From assembly GCF_000020025.1 (NCBI RefSeq), contig NC_010628.1, positions 8,010,001 to 8,042,000 on the forward strand: 32,000 bases of DNA, read 5' to 3'. The notes beneath the pieces are model-generated. The model was not told the DNA's origin, ran no database searches, and saw only the letters and a list, made by a program, of their open reading frames with translations. Both the position numbers and the translations under genes were made by a program. This document shows positions 13,889 through 28,614 of the stretch, piece by piece (within the stretch, counting starts at the first letter, position 1; the number at the start of each line of letters is the position of its first letter). This DNA is from Nostoc punctiforme PCC 73102. Its GTDB lineage: Bacteria; Cyanobacteriota; Cyanobacteriia; Cyanobacteriales; Nostocaceae.

Positions 13889-14539
13889 CTATACTTGTCC
13901 CTGAATAATTTGAGTCAATTCACTGCGGCTACGATTTGCTTCTGACCAAAAAGCTATCCAAAATATAAATAGCATCAACATAGGCATTCCTATAAAGAGG
14001 GCAGCCATGTAATTAGGCATTGCACCTGTCAATATTATAGGGACAACTGCACTATACCAGAATAAAAACCAGAATCCTAAAAATACCATAACAAAAAAAT
14101 GTATGCTCATCTGTACATGAATAACTGTTTGGTGGGATTCTACTTCAAAACTTCCTCGAATCACTGGCAAAAATGAGTTTCGGTAGTGAATTATCCGGCT
14201 GATTTGAAAGCCTTCTTCAGAAATTGTTCCTTGATAAGGGGCGTGTTTCTTAGAGAATCTAAATGCTTTAGGAGGTTCAACTTTTGCATTCAGTCGTTGC
14301 ATAACTACAGGCAGTGCATCAGGTGTCGAAATCGTAAAGCTATCGTGGGGTAATACTTTCATGTTGATTGAGGTTACTGACTGACAAAAAAACTCGATGA
14401 ATTGTAATATTGCTTTCAGTTTTCCCTCAGCAGCAGCTTTTCTAACAAAAGGAACTGATGGACTGAATCTTCGCGCCAGATTTCCCACCAACTCATCACT
14501 CCAATAGCCCATATCTGTCTTGGAAAAAAGCTTCTCCAA
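13889..14539 (-). CDS. Hypothetical protein with soluble N-domain and C-terminal transmembrane helices
   Basis: The ORF begins at TTG 14539, and ATG 14512 is a more plausible start. Hydrophobic helices are FFVMVFLGFWFLFWYSAVVPIIL and MAALFIGMPMLMLFIFWIAFW. I recognise no family. Confidence 0.5.
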   Translation of the reverse strand: MEKLFSKTDMGYWSDELVGNLARRFSPSVPFVRKAAAEGKLKAILQFIEFFCQSVTSINMKVLPHDSFTISTPDALPVVMQRLNAKVEPPKAFRFSKKHAPYQGTISEEGFQISRIIHYRNSFLPVIRGSFEVESHQTVIHVQMSIHFFVMVFLGFWFLFWYSAVVPIILTGAMPNYMAALFIGMPMLMLFIFWIAFWSEANRSRSELTQIIQGQV

Positions 14540-15621: not shown

Positions 15622-15647
15622 ATCTGAAAATGATTTCGGATAAAAAG

Positions 15648-15687
15648 CAAAGACGCAAAGATATAACTTTGCGTCTTTGTTTCTTTG
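15648..15687 (+). terminator. Rho-independent terminator of the peroxiredoxin gene
   Basis: Perfect 13-bp stem caaagacgcaaag (15648-15660) / ctttgcgtctttg (15667-15679) with a 6-nt loop. A T-rich tail tttcttt follows. Confidence 0.8.
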
Positions 15688-15821
15688 CGTGAGAATATAG
15701 TTAGTCGGCTAGGCATCTGAATCTGGAGGAAAACTTATAGATAATGATGTCTTGCAAAATACAGCAATTTTTGTTTTTTTTACCGTAATGTGAGAAAAAA
15801 GTTTGACTGAAAAACTCCTAT

Positions 15822-16031
15822 ATGACAGACAAAATCATTGAACGCATTCTCGCTGCTGCCGATACTCCAAACCTTCTTGATATCTTGACAAATCGGTTGA
15901 GCTTGTCAGACTTACAATCTCTCTTACTTGAAGTTTATCGCCGACATGCAGCCTCCCTCACGCCTAGCGACATCTTAAAGCAGTCGATGCCGTTACGGAA
16001 GATTAGGTCTAAGGTTTCTAGCGATTTCTGA
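15822..16031 (+). CDS. Short ORF, possibly the N-terminal remnant of a longer conserved hypothetical gene
   Basis: ATG-started 69-aa ORF. Its first ~55 aa (…LSLSDLQSLLLEVYRRHAASLTPSDILKQ) read like a conserved N-terminus that I recall from longer proteins. The tail looks like out-of-context sequence. Confidence 0.3.
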   Translation: MTDKIIERILAAADTPNLLDILTNRLSLSDLQSLLLEVYRRHAASLTPSDILKQSMPLRKIRSKVSSDF

Positions 16032-16248
16032 AATAGCTGGGCAAACTCACCGTAGGCAAAGTTGCCACTGCTGGGACGGCACTCTTGCTGGCAGTGGCAA
16101 AGGTAAATTCTGAGTTTTATATTTGAATTACACTAATGTCTTTTTAAAGAACTTGTAAACATTGGACTTTATAACTTTTGGTTGATGAGTTGGTTGATAA
16201 ATTAGACGAAAATTTTGCTTGAACTTAGAAAATATTAAGGATAAAAAT

Positions 16249-16410
16249 ATGTCTAGAATCAAAATTACTGATTTGCAACCTCACAATCGAGTTGAAGAAC
16301 GCGAAATAACTGAGGCTGTTATGACGGCAGTCATTGGAGGAATTCAAATTAAGCTTCTAGGTAATAATATTCTGGATGCAACATTCAAGGGTTTTGCATT
16401 GACAGTTTAA
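16249..16410 (+). CDS. Candidate double-glycine-leader secreted peptide precursor (53 aa)
   Basis: ATG 16249 sits 7 nt after AAGGA (16237-16241). The leader MSRIKITDLQPHNRVEEREITEAVMTAVIGG ends in GG (codons at 16336-16341), with hydrophobic residues at -4, -7 and -12. A 22-aa Cys-free core follows: IQIKLLGNNILDATFKGFALTV. Confidence 0.4.
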   Translation: MSRIKITDLQPHNRVEEREITEAVMTAVIGGIQIKLLGNNILDATFKGFALTV

Positions 16411-16471
16411 ATTTGACAATATATTCCTTGTAGAAGGGGTAAATTCAACGAAAATCAGTGAATGGCTATCC

Positions 16472-16674
16472 CTTCTATACGAGACGCTACGCGAACAAGG
16501 GGTATCCGTAATAGCCGACCGTTCATTGGCCATTAGACTTCTTGCAGAGTGGGTAAAGGGGTAAAGGGTAAAGATATGGAATTTTCCCTTTCCCATCAAC
16601 ATACACTCCAACATCTTGCAAAAGTTACTTTTACAAGATGTCTATTAGTCATTGGCACTAATGACCAATGACTT
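16472..16674. repeat. Repeat cluster: SDR unit, GGGTAAA heptamers and a 9-bp-stem hairpin
   Basis: cttctatacgagacgctacgcgaac occupies 16472-16496. gggtaaa ggggtaaa gggtaaa occupies 16551-16573. agtcattgg (16647-16655) pairs with ccaatgact (16665-16673). Confidence 0.75.
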
Positions 16675-17394
16675 CGATTTCTCCGTTAACCTAAAGGTAT
16701 TACATTGAAATCTATAATAATAAATACATTGCTTTACTGCGTGATTACTGCCTTACACCAGACAATTAAATGTAGCTAGCCGCAAGCACGATCTCTTTCT
16801 ATTCATGCTCTCTTTTTGGCGGAGGGATTGATAATTACGATCGTTATTTTTTAAATTTGAACTCTTAATTTTTTTTGAGTAATTTATTCTTTGGTAGTCC
16901 TTTAGGGGAGAAGAAAGAGGTGACTATAGTACCTTACTCGACTACCTCCCATCGACTCAACCAAAATGCCCAGTCATGAACACCATTGTAGAGGTCAGCA
17001 ATGGGGATTGAGTAGAAATTTAAACAGACATAAAATCACGCATTCTGTCTAAATATTTAATCTGAAAGATTTGATTATTCTTGCTTAATCATGAAATCGA
17101 TCATAGCCTTTAACACTTTATTGGCTATTTAGCTAATAACCTAACTTCAATCAATATTTCTAGTTCCTGCCAGTAGATTTTATCTACATACTCAGTTTAT
17201 ATTATTGGCTACCTGAGTCTCGAAAGAAAAAATTTTCAAAGACTTATATTTCAATATAAGGTCTAAATCATTTAATTGTGAAACAGAAATTTGAAGGATA
17301 ATTAAAAGCAGTTAGGTTTGATATCTTCATCTTCAGTAAATTTCATTAATATCAGTTATTTATTGATTTGATGTGAAACTAAAATGGATGAACT

Positions 17395-17841
17395 TCAATT
17401 GAAACTTGATAAATAATTAGGGGTGAAGTATGGAATAAGCTCAACATCAACCTCATCTGTTAAAAGCCGTAGTTTTTCTGCATCTTCTTTAAGATAAGTA
17501 GTTATCCACAAGCGATCAGCCACAGTTTTGGGAGAGTCCTTAATTAGATATTCAAATGCAGAAACTTGCTCAATTAGGTCAGACTAACGTTTGTAGCAGG
17601 TGTGATAAATCACCTCAGAACACAACCATTGCTACAGTTTTTCAACAGACATAAAGTCTGGACTGTAACCTGATAATGGTTCCACCAAAATATTTAGTGT
17701 TGCAGCCGCATCTTTAAAAATTTGTGAGTAGTGATAAGAAGCACCGCCCTAAATCAATGTCATTAGGATATTTGGGAATTCGGTTTTGAAAGCAGTCCCA
17801 TGCATGACAAAACTCCAGCTTTCAAGATAGACAAGGTTTAA
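17395..17841 (-). pseudogene. IS630-like (DDE_3-type) transposase pseudogene, C-terminal part
   Basis: The minus-strand frame reads ...ILMTLI*GGASYHYSQIFKDAAATLNILVEPLSGYSPDFMSVEKL*QWLCSEVIYHTCYKR*SDLIEQVSAFEYLIKDSPKTVADRLW... There are three in-frame TAG stops (17749-17751, 17632-17634, 17584-17586). The GASYH...YSPDF...E layout matches the DDE catalytic region. Confidence 0.65.
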
Positions 17842-17843
17842 TT

Positions 17844-19175
17844 ATGCCAATGTTTAAACGTTCTCCTGCCTCCCAGCGCACTAAAAATGTTAATGGTCAG
17901 CATTCATCCATTCATGGGTTAAAAGTCTTGTATGAACCAAAGTCAGTACGCTCTCTAGCCTCCAATGCAGCAATGATTCTAATCAGTGCTGCATTGCTAA
18001 GTTGGTCTTTCCGCTTCATGAAAGCTCAACTAACAACTGTAAATAGCGTTGATGCAGTTATGAACGGTACGCTAACAGATATACGGGCACAACAAGAAGG
18101 TGTGATTTCAAAAGTTACAGTCAAAACTGGTCAGTCTATAAACTCTGAGGATTTGTTATTTGTTATAGAAAATCAACGCACAAGCCAACTTCAAGCTCAA
18201 GAAGTTTCTAGTCGCCTAAATCAACAAGAAGCAGAATTGAGACAGGCTCAAGAACGTTTAGCGCATAAACTGTCACTTCTGAATATAGTAAATCGAGATG
18301 CTGTAAACCAGGAGAGGTTGGCAGTCTTGGAGAATCAGCAAAACCAAAAGCAATTGCTGTCCGATCTTGAAGGTGCAAAGTCGCGTTATCAACTTGCAGA
18401 ATTAAACTATAAACGAGCAAAGCTTTTAAAGTCAGAAGGAGCGATCGCTGAAGCCAGCTTTGATGCAGCAGAGATTGAACTAAAACAGCGTGAAAGTGAA
18501 GTAGAAAGCCTGCAAGCTAAACTTGCAGCATTACAGGTTAACCAGGATGCTGTTCGTAATGGCTTATCATTATCCAGAACAAGGAGTAACTACGACCCAA
18601 GCATTCGTTTAGTAGAATTGCAATTGCAAATTGCTGAAGACCAGCAAGGAATTGAAACCTTGAAAAAAACGATTCAAGGAACTAAAGCAGAGTTCGATCA
18701 GGCAAAGAAAGATTTACAACACAAGCAGGTTGTAACAATCAAATCGCCGGAATCTGGAGTAATGTGGCGCCTGACTGCCCAACTTGGCAAGTTTGTGCAA
18801 CAAGGAGATTCGCTAGGGCAAATTGCGGCCTGTAATCAACGATGGGTAGATGCTTGGGTGGACGAGCAGAAGGTGCAATTACTTCAAGTTGGGACTCCAG
18901 CCGAGATTAAGCTGAATGGTACAGGGTCATCCGTTACCCTGACAGGAAAAATCTCGGTAATCCGTTCGGGGATCGGGCGATTATCTGCTGGAGAAGATAC
19001 TGTTGTAGCAATGATGCCAAATTTACCACGACATACGCAAGTGCATATTACGTTAGATACGGAACCTAGCTCTTCTTCATCCGAGAATATGCATAATGGC
19101 AATCTTTGTTACATCGGTTATACAGGGCGGGTGGTATTCAAGGTGCGATCTACCAGTTTTTTTGCGGGCTTCTAA
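17844..19175 (+). CDS. HlyD-family periplasmic adaptor (membrane fusion protein), XcsB-like
   Basis: One N-terminal TM helix (AAMILISAALLSWSF) is followed by a barrel-sandwich segment (GVISKVTVKTGQSINSEDLLFVIEN). Then come a ~200-aa Q/E/L-rich coiled coil and a C-terminal beta-domain. The synthase gene lies directly downstream. Confidence 0.8.
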   Translation: MPMFKRSPASQRTKNVNGQHSSIHGLKVLYEPKSVRSLASNAAMILISAALLSWSFRFMKAQLTTVNSVDAVMNGTLTDIRAQQEGVISKVTVKTGQSINSEDLLFVIENQRTSQLQAQEVSSRLNQQEAELRQAQERLAHKLSLLNIVNRDAVNQERLAVLENQQNQKQLLSDLEGAKSRYQLAELNYKRAKLLKSEGAIAEASFDAAEIELKQRESEVESLQAKLAALQVNQDAVRNGLSLSRTRSNYDPSIRLVELQLQIAEDQQGIETLKKTIQGTKAEFDQAKKDLQHKQVVTIKSPESGVMWRLTAQLGKFVQQGDSLGQIAACNQRWVDAWVDEQKVQLLQVGTPAEIKLNGTGSSVTLTGKISVIRSGIGRLSAGEDTVVAMMPNLPRHTQVHITLDTEPSSSSSENMHNGNLCYIGYTGRVVFKVRSTSFFAGF

Positions 19176-19284
19176 TTTGCACAAGTTACCAATAATTATA
19201 CTTATTTCCCCATCTAATACACTTCTTAAAGGTTTTTACCTCCGCATTCTCAAGGAATTTTGAGTTTTTACTACTGTTATAACA

Positions 19285-21465
19285 ATGACGAAAACTGATC
19301 CTCAAAAAGCCTCTTCTTCATGGGTCTGGACACTATTTATCATCAGTGCCTTTGTATTTGTATCAACAGTATTTATTAGTGGTTGGACAAGCACAGGGCC
19401 GACGTTTTTTCCAACCTATGAAGTCAACCCAACAATTACTCGATTATTGCCAACTGTATTACAGGTACCATCCATTGATTGGGAGCTATCATTTCCTATT
19501 GTTGCTGTTCTTCTAATTTGTGTTTGTCTCCGATTTATTCGATCTACAAATAGTAGCCGCTTTGTCATGAAATTAATCCTATTATTTCTGGCAACACGTT
19601 ACTTTACCTGGCGAACAGTTGTCACCTTAAATTTTTCCCATCCAGCTAGTATAGTTTTTTCTTTAACAATTTACATTTTAGAGGTAATTTCCTTTTTTTC
19701 TTGCTGCTTATATACACTGCAAACTATTTGGTCAACCTCAAAATTACGAAGTGCAGAGGCGAATCAATATTCTCAAGCTGTTCTTTCCACCCAATATCTT
19801 CCCTCGGTTGATGTGCTGGTTCCTACTTATAATGAGCCAGACTATATTGTTCGCCGAACTGTTATCGGCTGTCAGGCAATGGAGTATCTCAACAAAACTA
19901 TTTATATTTTGGATGATACTCGCCGCCCTCATATTAAAGAGCTGGCAGAGGAATTGGGATGTGAATACATCACTCGCCCAGATAATACCCATGCAAAGGC
20001 TGGTAACTTAAATAATGCGTTGAAGTATATTGGCGGTGAATTGATTGTACCTATCGATGCAGATTTTGTGCCATTCAAAAACTTTTTGACTCGAACAGTT
20101 GGCTTTTTTCAAAATCCAGAAACTTCTCTTGTTCAGACTCCACAATACTTTTACAATCCGGACTATCATGCTCGTAATTTAGGGTTAGAAAATTTTCTAC
20201 CCAATGATTTAGAGCATTTCTATGGGTTACAGCAATCAAACCGAGATGTGGGCAATAGTGTGATTTGCTGTGGTAGTTCCTATGTTGTTCGACGAAGTTG
20301 TCTCGATGCAATTGGAGGTTATTACACTCGATGCTGCGTTGAAGACTTTCAAACATCTTTACGAATGTTGACGCACGGTTTTCGACTGATTTTTCTCAAT
20401 GAAGTTCTTAGTACAGGAGAATCAACTCGAACCTATACAGATTATATCGATCAGCGACTTCGCTGGTTACAAGGAAATTTTCAGGTTTACTTTTGCGGTG
20501 ATGATATTCCGATTTGGTCGAAACTTAACTGGATTCAAAAAAGCTACAGCATATCGCAGCTTATTTATTGCTTTCAATCAGTGTTTCGAGCTGTTTTTAT
20601 ATTGGCACCTCTGTGCAGTGCCTACCTTGGAATTTCACCCTTTATTGCAACCCTGCCTGAAATTCTCTACTACTTCATGCCATTCTGGTTGTTGCATATT
20701 GCAATTTATGGTTGGGCATCAAATTACCGAGTTTCTTACTTTTGGAACGAAGTATACGAAACAATCTTTTGTTTTCCAGCACTCAAACGATTGAGTCTCA
20801 TTATCCGCAATCCTTTTGCAAAAGCAAGTCGGGCTACTCGTAAAGGGGTCAAGGCAGATCGAAAGAATTACAATTTCAATCATACATTGCCACTGATTAT
20901 TCTTTTAGCATTGTCGGGATTGATTATTGGATTGCATCTTTTTGGGGTACAACTTGGAGTTTGGTTAACTTTGGATGAAAGTTCAGGTGTATTAATATTC
21001 TGGCTTTTTTACAATGTTCTATTTATGGGAGTAGCTATTCTATCGGCTATCGACCAACCAATTCGGCGGACAATGGATCGTTTCCCTTTAAAAACAACTT
21101 GTAAGATTACAGCCAAAGATCAAGTTTTTTTGGGTTACACTCAAAACCTTTCTGAAAGTGGAGCCAGAGTTGTATTGATTACGTCAGATGTCGCCCTCAA
21201 TACATCGATTGTCGAGGTTACATTTGTGGAGTATGGCTTTTCCATACAGGCGGAGATTGTGCGTTTTTTCGTCAAGAAGGATAAGTTCGGGATTGCTTTG
21301 CAATTTATCCAGCTTGAAACTGAACAACAGCGTAAATTGGTTGAGGTGCTGTATACCGAAATGACTTGGTGGAAACAGCGCAAGAAGCCTGGAAATTTAG
21401 ACTCTTTCCTGGCAATGATAGCCTCCACCATTCAAGCAAGATCGCTTCTCAATTGGTATGACTGA
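19285..21465 (+). CDS. Processive family-2 glycosyltransferase (cellulose-synthase-like) with C-terminal PilZ domain, XcsA/BcsA-like
   Basis: GT2 synthase motifs occur in order: VLVPTYNEP, ILDDT, IDADF, QTPQ, CCGS, VEDF, QRLRW. There are multiple TM helices before and after the catalytic domain. PilZ signatures RRTMDR and NLSESG are present. Confidence 0.88.
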   Translation: MTKTDPQKASSSWVWTLFIISAFVFVSTVFISGWTSTGPTFFPTYEVNPTITRLLPTVLQVPSIDWELSFPIVAVLLICVCLRFIRSTNSSRFVMKLILLFLATRYFTWRTVVTLNFSHPASIVFSLTIYILEVISFFSCCLYTLQTIWSTSKLRSAEANQYSQAVLSTQYLPSVDVLVPTYNEPDYIVRRTVIGCQAMEYLNKTIYILDDTRRPHIKELAEELGCEYITRPDNTHAKAGNLNNALKYIGGELIVPIDADFVPFKNFLTRTVGFFQNPETSLVQTPQYFYNPDYHARNLGLENFLPNDLEHFYGLQQSNRDVGNSVICCGSSYVVRRSCLDAIGGYYTRCCVEDFQTSLRMLTHGFRLIFLNEVLSTGESTRTYTDYIDQRLRWLQGNFQVYFCGDDIPIWSKLNWIQKSYSISQLIYCFQSVFRAVFILAPLCSAYLGISPFIATLPEILYYFMPFWLLHIAIYGWASNYRVSYFWNEVYETIFCFPALKRLSLIIRNPFAKASRATRKGVKADRKNYNFNHTLPLIILLALSGLIIGLHLFGVQLGVWLTLDESSGVLIFWLFYNVLFMGVAILSAIDQPIRRTMDRFPLKTTCKITAKDQVFLGYTQNLSESGARVVLITSDVALNTSIVEVTFVEYGFSIQAEIVRFFVKKDKFGIALQFIQLETEQQRKLVEVLYTEMTWWKQRKKPGNLDSFLAMIASTIQARSLLNWYD

Positions 21466-21562
21466 ACGATTATCAGCCTATACTTTTGCAGTTTTTTCAT
21501 ATTCTGTTTAAGTAAATATACTTCGTTAGCTAGGGCTAGTTGAATAAAATAACTCTTTAGTA

Positions 21563-22846
21563 ATGCTTAAATTTGGACAATATTTACTATTAGCATTGTG
21601 CTTAAGCATACTTTTGGTGAACCAGAGTTCAATTTTCACAGAAAGACTCACTCCTTTATCCTTTATGCAAGCCAATCAACTCAGATTGTCAGAGCAAATT
21701 GATCGAACTCGTACAGGAAATATGGTTATCCAGGTTGTTAATTCTCAGCAGCAGCCAGTCTCCGGTGTCGAAGTTAAACTTGAGCAGGTTGCTCATGAAT
21801 TTGAGTTTGGTACAGCGCTCAGTACTCAAATGTTTGCTCAAGGCGCTAATCCTAACGATCAAGCTCAGTATTTTAATCTTTCTAGGCAACTTTTCAATGG
21901 CACTGTGCATGAAAATGCTCTCAAGTGGTATGCAACTGAAGAACAACAGGGACACGTCAATTATGTAGATGCGGATCGAATTTTAAGCTGGAGTGAAACC
22001 CATTCTCTACCATTACGCGGACATGCACTTTTTTGGGAGGTGGAGAAATGGAACCAGCCTTGGTTGAAATCTCTTTCCAAGCAAGAACTGCGACTTGCTG
22101 TTGAACGGCGAGCAACAGAAATTTGCGATCGCTATCGAGGGCGAATTCGTGAATATGATGTTTTAAATGAGATGCTACATGGTGATTTTTTTAGGCAGCG
22201 CTTAGGTGAAGATATTGTCAAAACAATGTTCGAGCGATGCCATGCTGCCGATCCGAATGCAGTACTATATGTTAATGATTACGACATCCTGAATGGTAGA
22301 AGATTGGATGACTATGTTCAACAGATTCGTTCATTACTGGCGCAAGGAGTCCCAATTGGAGGGATTGGGATTCAGGCACACATTTTAAGAGAAAAAATCA
22401 CACCAGCACAGATCCAACACAGTCTAGATACGTTAGCACAATTCAATTTACCAATTAAGATCACAGAATTTTCTACACTTGCAAATACTGAGCAGGAACA
22501 AGCAAAAATTCTGCTTAATCTGTATCAAATCGCTTTTGCCCACCCAATGGTTAAGGGAATTCTCATGTGGGGATTCTGCCAGAAGGCCCATTGGGTACCT
22601 CAAGCAGCTATTTTTGACAGAAACTTCCAACCAAAACTGGCTGCAAAAGTCTATGAAGAGCTAGTTTTCCAGCAATGGTGGACTCGAGCGAGTGGGATCA
22701 CCAATCAGAATGGTCAATTCTCAACCCGTGCTTTCTTTGGACAGTACCAGGTAACGGTAAAAGGGCAAAACTGGAGTCAAACTCGCTCATTCTCATTTCA
22801 ATCCCAAATAAATCAATCTAGAGTTTTGACATTAGTTGTCTCATGA
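21563..22846 (+). CDS. Secreted glycoside hydrolase, GH10-like (clan GH-A)
   Basis: Signal peptide MLKFGQYLLLALCLSILLV. GH10-type motifs are ENALKWYATEEQQG, LRGHALFWE, the acid/base YDVLNE and the nucleophile IKITEFS. Confidence 0.8.
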   Translation: MLKFGQYLLLALCLSILLVNQSSIFTERLTPLSFMQANQLRLSEQIDRTRTGNMVIQVVNSQQQPVSGVEVKLEQVAHEFEFGTALSTQMFAQGANPNDQAQYFNLSRQLFNGTVHENALKWYATEEQQGHVNYVDADRILSWSETHSLPLRGHALFWEVEKWNQPWLKSLSKQELRLAVERRATEICDRYRGRIREYDVLNEMLHGDFFRQRLGEDIVKTMFERCHAADPNAVLYVNDYDILNGRRLDDYVQQIRSLLAQGVPIGGIGIQAHILREKITPAQIQHSLDTLAQFNLPIKITEFSTLANTEQEQAKILLNLYQIAFAHPMVKGILMWGFCQKAHWVPQAAIFDRNFQPKLAAKVYEELVFQQWWTRASGITNQNGQFSTRAFFGQYQVTVKGQNWSQTRSFSFQSQINQSRVLTLVVS

Positions 22847-23112: not shown

Positions 23113-25569
23113 TTACGGTTGAATCCGGAGTGTTAACAGCACAGTACTGGTGAGTATCTCTTCGGGTAGCCAAGCTAAAAGCGATCGCCTCATTAATTCA
23201 ATCACTGTCCGTTCCTTCAGGGATGAAGCCTGCTCATCCAGCAGCAACTGTCTCACCCGTCCCTGGCTAAGTTGGAATTCAAACACCAAATCACCACCAA
23301 AACCTCTAGGGAGTTGAATTGATTGCAAGTATTGAGTCAGCAGAGAAATTATCTCTTGATTCAATCCCGTTACGCTGACAACCTGTAAACGAGGTACAGA
23401 AGATTCTTCTTTCTGTAAAGCTTTTAAATTTTCAAATTGTGGCATCGCTCTTTCGGGAACTGATAACAGGCTATCAAGATTACTAAAGCCATCATCATCT
23501 GCAAATCCGATTTCTGGCTCTGATGCTGGAATATCGAATTCCATCGCTAATGACTCCATTTCTTCAAACCGTTGTATCGGTTTTGATGGCGCAAACACAG
23601 GGGATGGCAAGGGTGGTGCAGATTGTTTCTTCGCCTGCTGGCGACTGCTTACCATTCCACCCCCAGGAGCAGCACCAAAACTTAGGTTACTAAAAATACC
23701 TTCATGACTGATTGCTTCAGGGATTTCTACAGGTACTTGCACAGATATAAAATCTCGGTTGGGATTGACTCTGATATCATCGCTGACGGCAACAAAAGCG
23801 GTATATTGCGATAACAGTTGATAAGTCAGAGCCGTATCTGTCACTGCTTCCACACCTCCCTTTGTGTCTCCACTCACCATTTGATTCATTAAATCCTTGA
23901 TGCGGGAACGTCCCCAAAGTTGAGCAATAGCGGGATTACCTGTTTGGGGAAAATTCAGGTGAAAACTGTGCTGATAACGCCTACCACCCGCAGCAATTCC
24001 AGTAACGTGCAACTTTCCAGAATGCGCGTCTGGTTTGCGTCCAAATAGCACTAACGGTTGCTCTGCAAATAAATCTGGTGGTGTAGAGGGATACATGATT
24101 GGAGATTCCCCATCACCTTCCCATTGCAATTGAATATTGGCGAGGACTGGATTATTGATTTGGCGGAAGAATTTTTCTACCACCTCATCTACAGGTTCAT
24201 CGTGGCGAATAATCCGAGCAATACCCCGTCCTAATTCTGCAATCCGATTGAGTAAGAAACGATTCACCGAACTACCTGCACCAAAGCTATGGAGGCGTGT
24301 TCCTGGCTGGAGACGTTGTTTAACTTCTGCTAAAATTTGGTTTTCGTTGCCGATATAGCCATCAGTTAGTAAAACAATATTTCGCAAGCGTCCCGGATTT
24401 GTGGCTTTTAAGTTTAAGACGGTGCGAATACCGCCTAACATCTCTGTTCCACCGCCAGCGTTTAAGCGATTGATATAGTTGATTGCTAATAAGCGATTTG
24501 CAGAAGTATTGGGGAGAGGAACGGGTGAAAGTTGCTGTGTGGTATCGGAAAAATCAATAATGTTGAAGGTGTCGTCGGGATTGAGTCCATTGATAAAACG
24601 ACGCATCAATTCCTGACATTGCATCAGTGGTTCGCCACTTTGAGAACCGGAGGAGTCGATGAGAAACACCATATCTTTGGCGACAATCTCATCAGGACGG
24701 TACTCAAAGGCGGGAATCAGGTATAGTGCGAAGTGTCCGCCCCGTTCATCAGCTTGAGTCAGCGTGGTTGTTTGGATGTTATTACTGGCAACTTGATAGC
24801 GTAAAATTAGGTCTTTGTTGGGTATGGTGTCTCCACCTCCTAATTTGACATTTACCAACTGTCCTTCACGGATAATTTGGATTTGGTGAGAGGGTGAGTT
24901 AATATCCTGAATCTCAATGCCAGCATTAATTTCTATGGTGACATTAATATCATGACGCGATCGCATTCCTGCTGGCAAAATGGGAGCGTTTAAGCGAGAA
25001 GCATCTGGAACTAAATCGGTATCTTGATTTTGAGTCATCGGTGCAATAGCTGAACCACCCCCAACTGCATCTTCTTCGATGGTGATTCCGGGAATGTAAC
25101 GGGGGCCAACAACCATTGGGAAGACAAACTCGTAATTTCCCCCCTCAAATTTTAGGCTGTCGCTGTAACGAATAATCACATCGATTTGTTCGCCTGGTTT
25201 GATGTTTGCCAGGGATTGGGTAAAGATATTGTCTCGTTCTTGTTCGAGGAGTCCGGCTGTCTGTCCTTGTTTTCTGGCTTGTTCGTAGATGGCTACAGCT
25301 TCTTGGCGTTTTTTGATGCTGCCTTGAATTGTGCGATCGCCTATGTGAATCAGCATATCATCAACGGCAGCTTCATCGGGTAAGGGGAAGATATAAACGG
25401 CTTCTAGGGTTGTGGTAAATGGATTTTCAAAGCTTTGGGTAACTTCCACCCGTGAGATGTTACCAGCGATTTTGGCTTTTACTTCGGTGTGTTTGAGGGG
25501 AAAAGCAATCTGTTGGCTGGAGTTTTGCAGATATAAGCCACTGGTTTGTTGTTCTAGGGTTTGAGTCAT
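23113..25569 (-). CDS. VIT + von Willebrand factor A domain protein with a long C-terminal extension
   Basis: The N-terminal VIT-like region runs FPLKHTEVKAKIAGNISRVEVTQSFENP...IKPGEQIDVIIRY. The vWA domain has a MIDAS motif, DMVFLIDSSGSQSG. A ~230-aa tail starts low-complexity and acidic, and ends in a small domain (GGDLVFEFQLSQGRVRQLLLDE...) that resembles TonB-C-like folds. Confidence 0.85.
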   Translation of the reverse strand: MTQTLEQQTSGLYLQNSSQQIAFPLKHTEVKAKIAGNISRVEVTQSFENPFTTTLEAVYIFPLPDEAAVDDMLIHIGDRTIQGSIKKRQEAVAIYEQARKQGQTAGLLEQERDNIFTQSLANIKPGEQIDVIIRYSDSLKFEGGNYEFVFPMVVGPRYIPGITIEEDAVGGGSAIAPMTQNQDTDLVPDASRLNAPILPAGMRSRHDINVTIEINAGIEIQDINSPSHQIQIIREGQLVNVKLGGGDTIPNKDLILRYQVASNNIQTTTLTQADERGGHFALYLIPAFEYRPDEIVAKDMVFLIDSSGSQSGEPLMQCQELMRRFINGLNPDDTFNIIDFSDTTQQLSPVPLPNTSANRLLAINYINRLNAGGGTEMLGGIRTVLNLKATNPGRLRNIVLLTDGYIGNENQILAEVKQRLQPGTRLHSFGAGSSVNRFLLNRIAELGRGIARIIRHDEPVDEVVEKFFRQINNPVLANIQLQWEGDGESPIMYPSTPPDLFAEQPLVLFGRKPDAHSGKLHVTGIAAGGRRYQHSFHLNFPQTGNPAIAQLWGRSRIKDLMNQMVSGDTKGGVEAVTDTALTYQLLSQYTAFVAVSDDIRVNPNRDFISVQVPVEIPEAISHEGIFSNLSFGAAPGGGMVSSRQQAKKQSAPPLPSPVFAPSKPIQRFEEMESLAMEFDIPASEPEIGFADDDGFSNLDSLLSVPERAMPQFENLKALQKEESSVPRLQVVSVTGLNQEIISLLTQYLQSIQLPRGFGGDLVFEFQLSQGRVRQLLLDEQASSLKERTVIELMRRSLLAWLPEEILTSTVLLTLRIQP

Positions 25570-26391: not shown

Positions 26392-28614
26392 CTATACTTT
26401 GAGGACGTGTTCAGGAGCTTGTTGTCGGATAGGCACTTGAATTATGAAATTAGTGCCTTGCCCAAGGCTAGAAAAACATAGCAATTTCCCACCATGTTTT
26501 TCCGTAATGATTTGGTAGCTGATTGCCATACCCATGCCTGTTCCTTTGCCTACAGGTTTGGTAGTAAAAAATGGATCGAAGATCCGGTTTTGAACCGATT
26601 CTGGCATTCCTTGTGCGTTATCAGCGATCGCAATTTCTATTGATTGTGAATCAACTACTGAAGTACGAATAGTAATTTGACTGGGATTTTTCTCTATCTG
26701 TTGAGAGGTACGCTTGATATCCAACTCATCAAGGGCATCCATTGCATTTACCAGAACATTCATTAATACTTGGTTGAGTTGACCAGGATAGCATTCCACT
26801 TGCGGCAAGTTGCCATAATTTTTAACAACTTCAATTGCTGGACGGTCTGGTTTATCTTTGAGGCGATGTTGCAGAATTAAAAGCGTACTTTCGATGCCTT
26901 CATGAATATCAACGGCTTTAAATTCTGCTTCATCCATACGCGAAAAATTCCGCAGCGATCGCACAATATTACGAATCCTCTCAGTCCCCATTTTCATTGA
27001 AGGCAGTATCTTTTGCAAATCTTCAATGAGAAATTCTAGATCGATTTCCTCTGCTAATGCTTGAATTTCTGGGTCATGACTAGAATAGCGTTCTTGGTAG
27101 AGATAAATCATCTGTAACAAGTTTTGAGTATATTCATCCAAGTGAGTAATATTGCCGTGAATAAAGTTGACTGGGTTATTGATTTCATGGGCAATACCTG
27201 CTACTAGTTGGCCCAGGCTAGACATTTTTTCACTTTGGAGTACTTGTGCTTGGGTACGCTGCAATTCGCTCATGGCTGTTTTGAGTTCAACAGTTCGTTC
27301 TTCGACTCGCGCTTCTAGTTCGGCATTACTGTTTTCTAAAGCAATAAAGGATTCGCGTAATTGCCCTCCCATGTGATTAAAAGAGTGGGCAAGAGTGTTG
27401 AGTTCATGGATATTGCCCTCTGGGAGTGTCTGCTCTAAATCACCAAATGCTATTGCTTGGGTGGTCTGATTCAAACGCAAGATCGGATCTGCAATCCGAC
27501 GCGAGGTAAATATGCCAATCATCGTTGCTACTATCAGTGCCCCAAAACACAGCAGGATGCTAATTTGGGTGTTGGCATAGATTTGCGCCATGTAAGTTTT
27601 TTCCGGAGTACCAACTACCACTAACCAGTCCAAACCATGTTGGTCACGCCAAGGTACAACATGCACGTAGAAATTTTCTCCTTGAACATTAATTTTCAGT
27701 TTTTGGGTATTGGCAACGGACTGGAAATTTGGAATGCGCTGCTGAAGCTGCTTGGCAATGCTTTGTAGCACCGGATTGGGGCTGTCGATCGCTTTAAGGC
27801 GTTTAATTTCGTTATTGACTACGGTAAAAGGCTTTTCTTGAGCAGAATTGGCAACTAACATACCATCACGCTCCATAATAAAAACTTGTCCGAAGCGGCT
27901 GACATCTAATTTTTGTAAAAATTCACTGAGTTTCAACAGGTGAATTTCAGCCCCCACAACACCAATCAGTTTTTTGCTGGCATCATAAATCGGACGACCT
28001 GCGGATGCCACAATATAAGGGGGATAAGCAGGATCGTAATAAGTATAAATGCGAACCCAGATAGGTTTCCCGGCTTTGACAGGTTCAGTGTAGGCAAGTT
28101 CATTGAGGGTATCCCAAGTACTGGTCGTCATCACTTTGGTTGGGTTGCCATCATTATCTGTTAAGTAAGTTTTCGTATTTTTCGGCAGACTTGGCGTTTT
28201 GATCGCATTATCATCGATTGTCACCGTTTTGCCATCGTAACGGCCGGCTCCAGTTCCTTCCCCAGTTGCTAGGTTCAAGCTGATAAAGGTTAGGTCATAG
28301 GCTTGCATTTCGTGCCAGAAGTACTTGCCAACCTTGAGGCGATCGCGCACATTCAGCAATCCCATGCGAATTGCATCCGCATTTAACTGGATAACTTTAT
28401 GAGGAATCGACAGGTAAGCATCTAAATGTTGATTTACCTCACCACTGGTTCGCTCCATCAACTGATCCGCTAGATCGTTCACTGCTTTCTCGCCATTTTT
28501 AAACGACAGATACCCGACCAGCCCCACGATGCTAAAAAGTTGCAATACGAAAGGAACGACCAGAACAAGCTGTAATGAAAATGCACGGACTTTGCTAGAT
28601 GGATGTATCTTCAT
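26392..28614 (-). CDS. Sensor histidine kinase: TM, periplasmic Cache-like domain, TM, HAMP, coiled coil, HisKA, HATPase
   Basis: Two TM helices bracket a ~300-aa extracytoplasmic domain. The HAMP region reads RRIADPILRLNQTTQAIAFGDL. The H-box is GIAHEINNP, the N-box NVLVNAMDA, and the G-boxes DNAQGM and GKGTGMGM. No response regulator is adjacent. Confidence 0.9.
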   Translation of the reverse strand: MKIHPSSKVRAFSLQLVLVVPFVLQLFSIVGLVGYLSFKNGEKAVNDLADQLMERTSGEVNQHLDAYLSIPHKVIQLNADAIRMGLLNVRDRLKVGKYFWHEMQAYDLTFISLNLATGEGTGAGRYDGKTVTIDDNAIKTPSLPKNTKTYLTDNDGNPTKVMTTSTWDTLNELAYTEPVKAGKPIWVRIYTYYDPAYPPYIVASAGRPIYDASKKLIGVVGAEIHLLKLSEFLQKLDVSRFGQVFIMERDGMLVANSAQEKPFTVVNNEIKRLKAIDSPNPVLQSIAKQLQQRIPNFQSVANTQKLKINVQGENFYVHVVPWRDQHGLDWLVVVGTPEKTYMAQIYANTQISILLCFGALIVATMIGIFTSRRIADPILRLNQTTQAIAFGDLEQTLPEGNIHELNTLAHSFNHMGGQLRESFIALENSNAELEARVEERTVELKTAMSELQRTQAQVLQSEKMSSLGQLVAGIAHEINNPVNFIHGNITHLDEYTQNLLQMIYLYQERYSSHDPEIQALAEEIDLEFLIEDLQKILPSMKMGTERIRNIVRSLRNFSRMDEAEFKAVDIHEGIESTLLILQHRLKDKPDRPAIEVVKNYGNLPQVECYPGQLNQVLMNVLVNAMDALDELDIKRTSQQIEKNPSQITIRTSVVDSQSIEIAIADNAQGMPESVQNRIFDPFFTTKPVGKGTGMGMAISYQIITEKHGGKLLCFSSLGQGTNFIIQVPIRQQAPEHVLKV

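Follow-up and report, generated by a model that had tools for sequence, protein, structure and literature searches.

In Thermosynechococcus vulcanus the Xcs system consists of XcsA (Tll0007), XcsB (Tlr0903), XcsC (Tlr1902) and TolC (Tlr1605) (Maeda et al. 2018, Mol Microbiol 109:121). The genes xcsA, xcsB, xcsC and tolC are genetically needed for cellulose-dependent aggregation in Thermosynechococcus (PMC7582838), the PilZ domain of XcsA binds cyclic di-GMP (c-di-GMP) (PMC10124867), and the product of the system is described as cellulose in both reviews. Cyanobacterial loci in which HlyD-like genes stand beside bcsA and replace bcsB are called “type IV” bcs operons in a 2025 review, which credits Romling and Galperin 2015 (PMC12430437); a HlyD-like subunit and a TolC-like exporter are said to substitute for BcsB and BcsC (Abidi et al. 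2021, PMC8892547). Citing Maeda 2018, the same review lists Npun_F6499 (HlyD-like), Npun_F6500 (PilZ synthase) and Npun_F6501 (endoglucanase) as a conserved operon and Synpcc7942_1399/1398/1400 as a likewise conserved, syntenic xcs operon; it further names Npun_F6500 as the sole PilZ-type synthase of Nostoc punctiforme ATCC 29133 (PMC12430437). In rhizobia, a related export logic has been described for BgsBA-TolC, where loss of tolC abolishes the mixed-linkage glucan, which does not pile up inside the cell either (PMC13438883, 2026). Here we compare with these systems a cluster of three genes, encoding a membrane-fusion protein (MFP) adaptor, a glycosyltransferase and a glycoside hydrolase, which lies in a stretch of 32,000 nucleotides of the N. 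punctiforme PCC 73102 chromosome (RefSeq NC_010628.1, positions 8,010,001 to 8,042,000); this whole stretch is referred to as the window, and coordinates are given relative to its first letter.

The three genes are all read from the plus strand: the adaptor gene (17844–19175, 443 amino acids), the synthase gene (19285–21465, 726 amino acids) and the hydrolase gene (21563–22846, 427 amino acids). All three proteins are exact sequence matches to ACC84762.1, ACC84763.1 and ACC84764.1, respectively, of N. punctiforme PCC 73102 / ATCC 29133, which are consecutive accessions on a chromosome of 8,234,322 bp; from strain, gene order, domain content and the statement of the review that there is a single PilZ-type synthase, we infer that they correspond to Npun_F6499, Npun_F6500 and Npun_F6501. 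As the proteins are identical to those of ATCC 29133 and the review names that locus, the window holds the published, textbook example of the clustered form of Xcs. The cluster is thus very probably an xcsB-xcsA-xcsC module, that is, a clustered Xcs cellulose system of the kind treated in reviews as a “type IV” bcs operon. Since this locus has already been published together with its gene order and the idea of tripartite export, the observation is correct, but not new. A previous annotation made from the letters and a list of open reading frames (ORFs) alone, here called the sequence-only reading, had given three co-directional genes with gaps of 109 and 97 nt, and coordinates and lengths agree exactly with the ORF list. 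The novelty it implied for the operon form has to be given up, since the cluster is Npun_F6499-F6501 itself. Its view of Xcs was half right: no structure of an Xcs complex was found in the searchable literature, as it had supposed, but the published Npun and Synpcc7942 operons contradict its notion that descriptions were limited to dispersed genes.

The two intergenic spacers are short. Neither the one between adaptor and synthase (19176–19284, plus strand, 109 nt) nor the one between synthase and hydrolase (21466–21562, plus strand, 97 nt) contains a plus-strand terminator-like site in the scan performed; the 109-nt spacer has no Rfam match, and the 97-nt spacer contains one weak promoter-like match (21494–21522), in a scan that as a whole is at chance level. 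Promoter-like and terminator-like matches were no better than in shuffled sequence and speak neither for nor against co-transcription, and when the entire window was compared with Rfam at the gathering threshold, zero matches were returned, c-di-GMP riboswitches included. Because of the tight spacing and the conserved gene order (see below), the three genes are probably co-transcribed.

The synthase is a processive GT2 enzyme of the BcsA type. Pfam assigns to it Glycos_transf_2 (2e-21), further GT2 families and, at residues 594–690, PilZ (7.5e-11). Every motif quoted in the sequence-only reading could be placed, the catalytic ones at D210-D-T, D258-A-D-F, Q284-T-P-Q, V352-E-D and Q390-R-L-R-W, and those of the PilZ domain at R595-x-x-x-R599 and N621-L-S-E-S-G626; all of them, including RxxxR and NxSxxG, are invariant across a 14-member alignment of the family. 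Its best relatives of solved structure are true BcsA proteins (7lby, 1.8e-74; 4hg6, 1.4e-61), and more than 5,000 homologues are found at E ≤ 1e-30, many of which carry the JGI label “cellulose synthase (UDP-forming)”. A BcsA-like synthase that carries PilZ at its C-terminus, one of the features by which Xcs and “type IV” bcs loci are recognised, is therefore present; another, a HlyD-like gene beside the synthase gene where BcsB and BcsC are missing, is present as well, as BcsB-, BcsC-, GH8- and TolC-like proteins are not found among the ORFs of at least 120 amino acids in the 32-kb window. The absence of BcsB, BcsC and GH8-type BcsZ had been noticed correctly from sequence. The RefSeq lengths of the Nostoc orthologues differ, several synthase records having 632 amino acids as compared to 726–749 in others and the hydrolase ranging from 387 to 433, so annotation of start sites is inconsistent between strains.

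The adaptor matches the Pfam families HlyD_3 (9e-20) and HlyD_D23 (6e-15), which is in line with the HlyD adaptor with a long coiled coil proposed in the sequence-only reading. Every NCBIfam adaptor model falls below its own cutoff on this protein, and those for type I secretion and bacteriocin export score lowest (TIGR01843, 28.9 bits with a cutoff of 208.65; TIGR03794, 40.3 bits with a cutoff of 156.2); together with the absence of an ABC transporter gene from the window, these scores place the adaptor outside the HlyD class of type I secretion and bacteriocin ABC exporters. An AlphaFold2 (AF2) model, computed from an alignment of 22 homologues (mean pLDDT 80.4), predicts an N-terminal transmembrane helix (residues 38–64), a lipoyl-type domain, strands at 65–109 and 296–340, and a β-barrel reaching to residue 433. 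Between them, a long α-helical hairpin (116–295) is built from an outgoing helix of 82 residues (116–197) and a returning limb in two parts (203–238 and 252–295); a membrane-proximal domain is absent from the model. With anchor, lipoyl domain, β-barrel and hairpin all there, the modelled adaptor belongs to the superfamily of periplasmic adaptors, or MFPs, of tripartite pumps. When the model is compared by Foldseek with the PDB, EmrA from cryo-EM structures of EmrAB-TolC ranks first (8zar and 8zal, ~3e-19), followed by a crystal structure of EmrA (4tko, 1.1e-18), MacA and, lower down, HlyD; AcrA and MexA are matched too, and the probability is 1.00 for all of these proteins. Sequence identity to the EmrA structures is 14–18% and the TM-scores are 0.35–0.46; the latter are modest, as is to be expected of elongated proteins with hairpins of unlike length. 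The EmrA-like architecture of the model would fit docking to TolC.

Conservation among the synthase-linked adaptors is highest in the motif LSLSRTRSNYDP, at residues 239–252 (window ~18558–18599), in which L241, L243, S248, D251 and P252 are invariant among the 22 sequences. In the model it forms a low-confidence break in the returning helix, about midway along the hairpin. It is conceivable, though improbable, that this insertion is a site contacting the polymer or the hydrolase that is peculiar to polysaccharide-exporting MFPs.

Residues 1–19 of the hydrolase form a hydrophobic N-terminus, presumably a signal or anchor sequence, and the only glycoside-hydrolase family that the protein matches in Pfam is Glyco_hydro_10 (PF00331; 198.9 bits, 1.6e-58). 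The closest relative of solved structure is XynA of Bacillus sp. KW1 (PDB 7D88/7D89; E=1e-82 across residues 43–402), and E203 (in DVLNEM) and E302 (in KITEF) of the Nostoc enzyme align with the glutamates which are changed to alanine in 7D89 relative to 7D88. Judged by these residues, the acid/base glutamate of the NE motif and the nucleophile glutamate of the TE motif, and by its canonical subsites, the protein is a member of glycoside hydrolase family 10, a family with a (β/α)8 domain, as had been read from the sequence together with the signal peptide; it is not a GH8 enzyme of the BcsZ type, which it resembles, if at all, in role alone.

A search with this hydrolase gave a single GH10 hit in Thermosynechococcus vestitus BP-1, P0211, with 50% identity at 96% coverage of the window protein. 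It lies at about 1,988,548–1,989,786 on the plus strand of BA000039.2, or 76.7% along the chromosome. We take tlr1902, as gene 1902 of about 2,475, to be expected at about 76.8%, and its prefix “tlr” to denote the rightward strand. By this positional argument, which does not draw on annotation, P0211 is likely to be Tlr1902 (XcsC), and the Nostoc hydrolase would then be of the XcsC type. Given the 50% identity of P0211, its location at the place expected for tlr1902, and the description of the Xcs product as cellulose, GH10 appears to be the usual hydrolase of Xcs; the occurrence of GH10 instead of GH8 is a true departure from canonical bcs operons, but none from Xcs. The sequence-only reading was right to name Thermosynechococcus Xcs as the nearest system. 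Its hint that a GH10 enzyme points away from cellulose as the polymer is weakened by the Thermosynechococcus homologue P0211, by the description of the product as cellulose and by the ability of XynA to cleave cellulosics.

Gene neighbourhoods were surveyed from both ends of the cluster. On the synthase side, one genome per GTDB species was searched with an alignment of the synthase, and the flanks were searched with the window's own proteins; the orthologous clade comprises eleven loci (L001-L011) at 47–57% identity. In nine of these the adaptor gene is directly upstream of the synthase gene. The two loci lacking it there are both from Thermosynechococcus, which agrees with the dispersed genes reported for that genus. 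The GH10 gene directly follows the synthase gene in L001 and L003, and the contigs of L002 and L005 stop before that point. The full triplet was also found, by means of precomputed gene calls, in a Nostoc metagenome-assembled genome (MAG; L081), whose synthase is 93% identical, and in a Pantanalinema-type contig (L082; 55%); L083 and L086 carry the adaptor-synthase pair only. A replacement hydrolase was considered for the orthologous loci without GH10 and rejected, as the genes downstream are unrelated housekeeping genes. The model searches and the neighbourhood survey that the sequence-only reading had recommended confirm the HlyD, GT2, PilZ and GH10 assignments and extend the arrangement to other genomes; the pairing of adaptor and synthase is not confined to this genome, and the bacteriocin and type I models score lowest on the adaptor.

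On the hydrolase side, a scan of metagenomes with a GH10 alignment yielded 80 loci. At 53% identity or above, the synthase gene is directly upstream in 9 of 10 cases, as opposed to none of the remaining 70, which makes the XcsC-type enzyme a branch, tied to the synthase, of a wider GH10 subfamily. This subfamily takes in both XcsC and XynA and abounds in metagenome contigs from sediment and freshwater (L097-L166), where its members are 39–56% identical and have no synthase gene nearby; in one of them (L130) the GH10 gene occurs in two tandem copies.

Beyond the orthologous clade, a second large cyanobacterial clade (L012-L068) consists of PilZ-type BcsA-like synthases which are 35–41% identical to the window synthase and come from Nostoc, Microcoleus, Calothrix and a Thermosynechococcus MAG, among others. 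HlyD-like or GH10 genes lie within 7 kb of these synthase genes only at L015, from Synechococcus sp. CCY 9618, where the order is GH10-HlyD-synthase, and at L063. In the alphaproteobacterium Thalassospira sp. MCCC 1A01148 (L078, 5679–8911), a HlyD-like gene overlaps the start of a gene for a BcsA-like synthase of 32% identity, an arrangement which resembles rhizobial bgsBA.

By analogy with the systems outlined above, the Nostoc proteins would be expected to behave like their Thermosynechococcus counterparts, and a mechanism can be proposed on that basis. Binding of c-di-GMP to the PilZ tail of the synthase, through RxxxR and N/DxSxxG, would lift autoinhibition as in BcsA; the GT2 domain would then polymerise UDP-glucose to β-1,4-glucan, which would be threaded through the synthase's own transmembrane channel. 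The EmrA-like adaptor, in place of BcsB and BcsC, would oligomerise above the periplasmic exit, and its long hairpin would dock to a TolC-type outer-membrane channel encoded elsewhere, giving a continuous conduit; the need for such a TolC-type factor is suggested by Thermosynechococcus genetics. The secreted GH10 enzyme, in a BcsZ-like role, would trim or release glucan chains and so presumably acts on the nascent glucan. The expected product is extracellular cellulose, its synthesis responding to c-di-GMP, as reported for Thermosynechococcus. The sequence-only reading had put the synthase in the inner-membrane place that an ABC or RND pump normally takes beside an MFP, an idea which we judge to be correct; that the adaptor touches the synthase directly is likely.

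A number of points weigh against the assignment as a clustered Xcs cellulose system. The XcsAB-TolC model is called experimentally unvalidated in the review which names the Nostoc locus (PMC12430437), neither structural nor interaction data for any Xcs complex are found in the searchable literature, and a literature search for experiments on Npun_F6499-F6501 returned none. There is no TolC gene in the 32-kb window, and none in or near the cluster at any of the loci examined; in several orthologous loci, moreover, the GH10 gene is not next to that of the synthase. The unvalidated model and the missing TolC gene would suit an adaptor which serves as a BcsB-like periplasmic partner, stabilising or activating the synthase without a TolC duct, the glucan leaving by some other path or staying in the sheath or periplasm; as TolC mutants are pleiotropic, the genetic requirement for TolC could then be indirect. 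The adaptor, however, is predicted to have the full EmrA/HlyD-type architecture, with a hairpin helix of about 80 residues, the element contacting TolC in solved pumps. In tripartite pumps, TolC genes are often unlinked to those of their adaptors. TolC is genetically required not only in Thermosynechococcus but, independently, for rhizobial BgsBA, in which the tolC mutant holds no polymer inside the cell. A periplasmic partner of this kind therefore seems unlikely to us, and an adaptor joining the synthase to TolC is the reading we retain.

Other points concern the polymer. XynA, the closest characterised GH10 relative, is chiefly a xylanase, with 50–551 U/mg on xylans as compared to 5 U/mg on carboxymethylcellulose (CMC) and about 2 U/mg on Avicel, and BsXyn10, an 89%-identical enzyme, is devoid of activity on CMC and Avicel. 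When 14 synthase-linked or Xcs sequences were compared with 70 unlinked ones, the canonical catalytic and subsite residues of GH10 were equally conserved in both sets, so the substrate is not decidable by sequence alone and a glucan specificity is not evident; an active-site change specific to the synthase-linked clade was sought and rejected, the only discriminating columns being 144 and 188, neither of which is a canonical subsite. Further, the synthase scores 407.8 bits (residues 67–714) against TIGR03030 (CelA), the equivalog cutoff of which is 699.1; it is therefore filed as BcsA-like (XcsA-type) and not as canonical BcsA, being a clear CelA homologue but no equivalog by the NCBI criterion. 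Taken with the mixed-linkage glucan made by the rhizobial pair of MFP and BcsA-like synthase, these facts could be accommodated if the same machine made something other than plain cellulose, such as a mixed-linkage β-glucan or a xylose-containing or otherwise modified β-1,4-glycan, with the GH10 enzyme matched to that polymer. Yet cellulose is the described product of the orthologous system in Thermosynechococcus, which needs its GH10-type XcsC, the synthase finds its best structural and sequence matches in genuine BcsA proteins and has all BcsA motifs, including QxxRW and the T-x-K of the gating loop, and the XynA subfamily cleaves cello-oligosaccharides as well as CMC and Avicel; we hold such a polymer to be quite improbable. 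Because the active site of the synthase-linked GH10 is fully canonical and xylanase-type, and the nearest characterised relatives favour xylan by two orders of magnitude, a slightly slimmer chance still is left to a broader version, in which the Nostoc Xcs machine synthesises or co-processes some polymer other than plain cellulose (such as a xylose-containing or mixed-linkage β-glycan), or the GH10 enzyme does something other than trimming, e.g., clears a path through the sheath. Least credible is a fortuitous adjacency, with the HlyD-like gene belonging to an exporter of the ABC or bacteriocin kind and the GH10 enzyme being a scavenging xylanase that has nothing to do with the synthase, although the NCBI labels are generic (“HlyD family secretion protein” and “endo-1,4-beta-xylanase”), the GH10 subfamily extends to the 70 metagenome loci without a nearby synthase gene, and a small upstream ORF (16219–16410) might encode a GG-type leader. 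This is contradicted by the conserved linkage, order and orientation being kept down to about 50–55% protein identity in Nostoc, Pantanalinema, Pseudanabaena and other lineages; in addition, the window contains no ABC, C39 or RND genes, the adaptor stays below every pump-specific NCBIfam cutoff, with the bacteriocin and type I models weakest, the leader finds no family support, and in Thermosynechococcus neither xcsB nor xcsC is genetically dispensable. A coincidental grouping of this sort is hardly conceivable, and the Xcs module remains our preferred reading of the locus.

Between the gene for a 1-Cys peroxiredoxin and that of the adaptor lies a region of 2.2 kb (15622–17843) with 34–37% G+C and no ORF of more than 85 amino acids; this AT-rich gap contains repeats at chance level and small ORFs only. 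One of these, 16219–16410 (plus strand), has an internal start giving MSRIKITDLQPHNRVEEREITEAVMTAVIGG followed by IQIKLLGNNILDATFKGFALTV, which superficially looks like a double-glycine leader; as it has no Pfam or NCBIfam match and the window encodes no C39 or ABC exporter, it was dropped as evidence for a leader peptide or a bacteriocin exporter, and it is probably not a gene. In the Nostoc MAG the region upstream of the adaptor gene instead holds an α-L-fucosidase fragment and genes for Cas6, DevT and a transposase, so synteny breaks immediately upstream of the operon. Downstream, and convergent with the hydrolase gene, 23113–25569 (minus strand) encodes an 818-amino-acid protein with VIT and von Willebrand A domains, beyond which follows a gene for a dCache-HAMP histidine kinase (26392–28614, minus strand); no tie of either to the operon was seen in the related loci. 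Further off, an ORF for 216 amino acids (13889–14539, minus strand) has hydrophobic C-terminal segments and matches neither Pfam nor NCBIfam.

Structural and biochemical gaps in the understanding of Xcs were already flagged in the 2025 review, and the clustered Nostoc operon would be a handy single-fragment construct for such work. The parallel result on BgsBA-TolC suggests that export of polysaccharides through an MFP and TolC is a wider theme.

Compared with known systems, the cluster is Npun_F6499-F6501 itself, with the same order of adaptor, synthase and hydrolase and no difference in sequence. With Xcs of T. vulcanus it shares the same three protein types, the same proposed tripartite logic and a TolC to be encoded elsewhere; the window synthase is 47% identical to those of the two Thermosynechococcus loci (L010, L011), whereas orthology of the adaptor to Tlr0903 (XcsB) is taken from the literature, not from sequence comparison. 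The difference is one of arrangement, the genes being dispersed in Thermosynechococcus but clustered in Nostoc. The canonical BcsA-BcsB-BcsC-BcsZ systems of E. coli, Komagataeibacter and Rhodobacter resemble it in the fold class of the catalytic subunit, its motifs, the PilZ switch and the presence of an accompanying periplasmic glycanase; they differ in that the window encodes neither BcsB nor the BcsC porin with its TPR and β-barrel parts, has GH10 in place of GH8, and has a synthase below the CelA cutoff. XynA of Bacillus, the structural reference for the hydrolase, acts mainly on xylan, belongs to a Gram-positive biomass degrader and has no linked synthase. Likened to the cluster by description and not by sequence, BgsB-BgsA-TolC of Sinorhizobium meliloti has a HlyD-type MFP gene directly upstream of that for a c-di-GMP-activated BcsA-like synthase, and an unlinked but required TolC (PMC13438883); BgsA, however, binds c-di-GMP via a non-PilZ C-terminal region, its product is a β-1,3/1,4 glucan and its operon has no hydrolase gene. 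EmrAB-TolC, finally, an MFS-type pump, has an adaptor with the same N-terminal transmembrane anchor, lipoyl and β-barrel domains and long hairpin, and likewise no membrane-proximal domain; it sets the precedent that the inner-membrane partner of such an adaptor can be neither ABC nor RND, although the Nostoc adaptor would have a glycosyltransferase for its partner and a polymer for its cargo.

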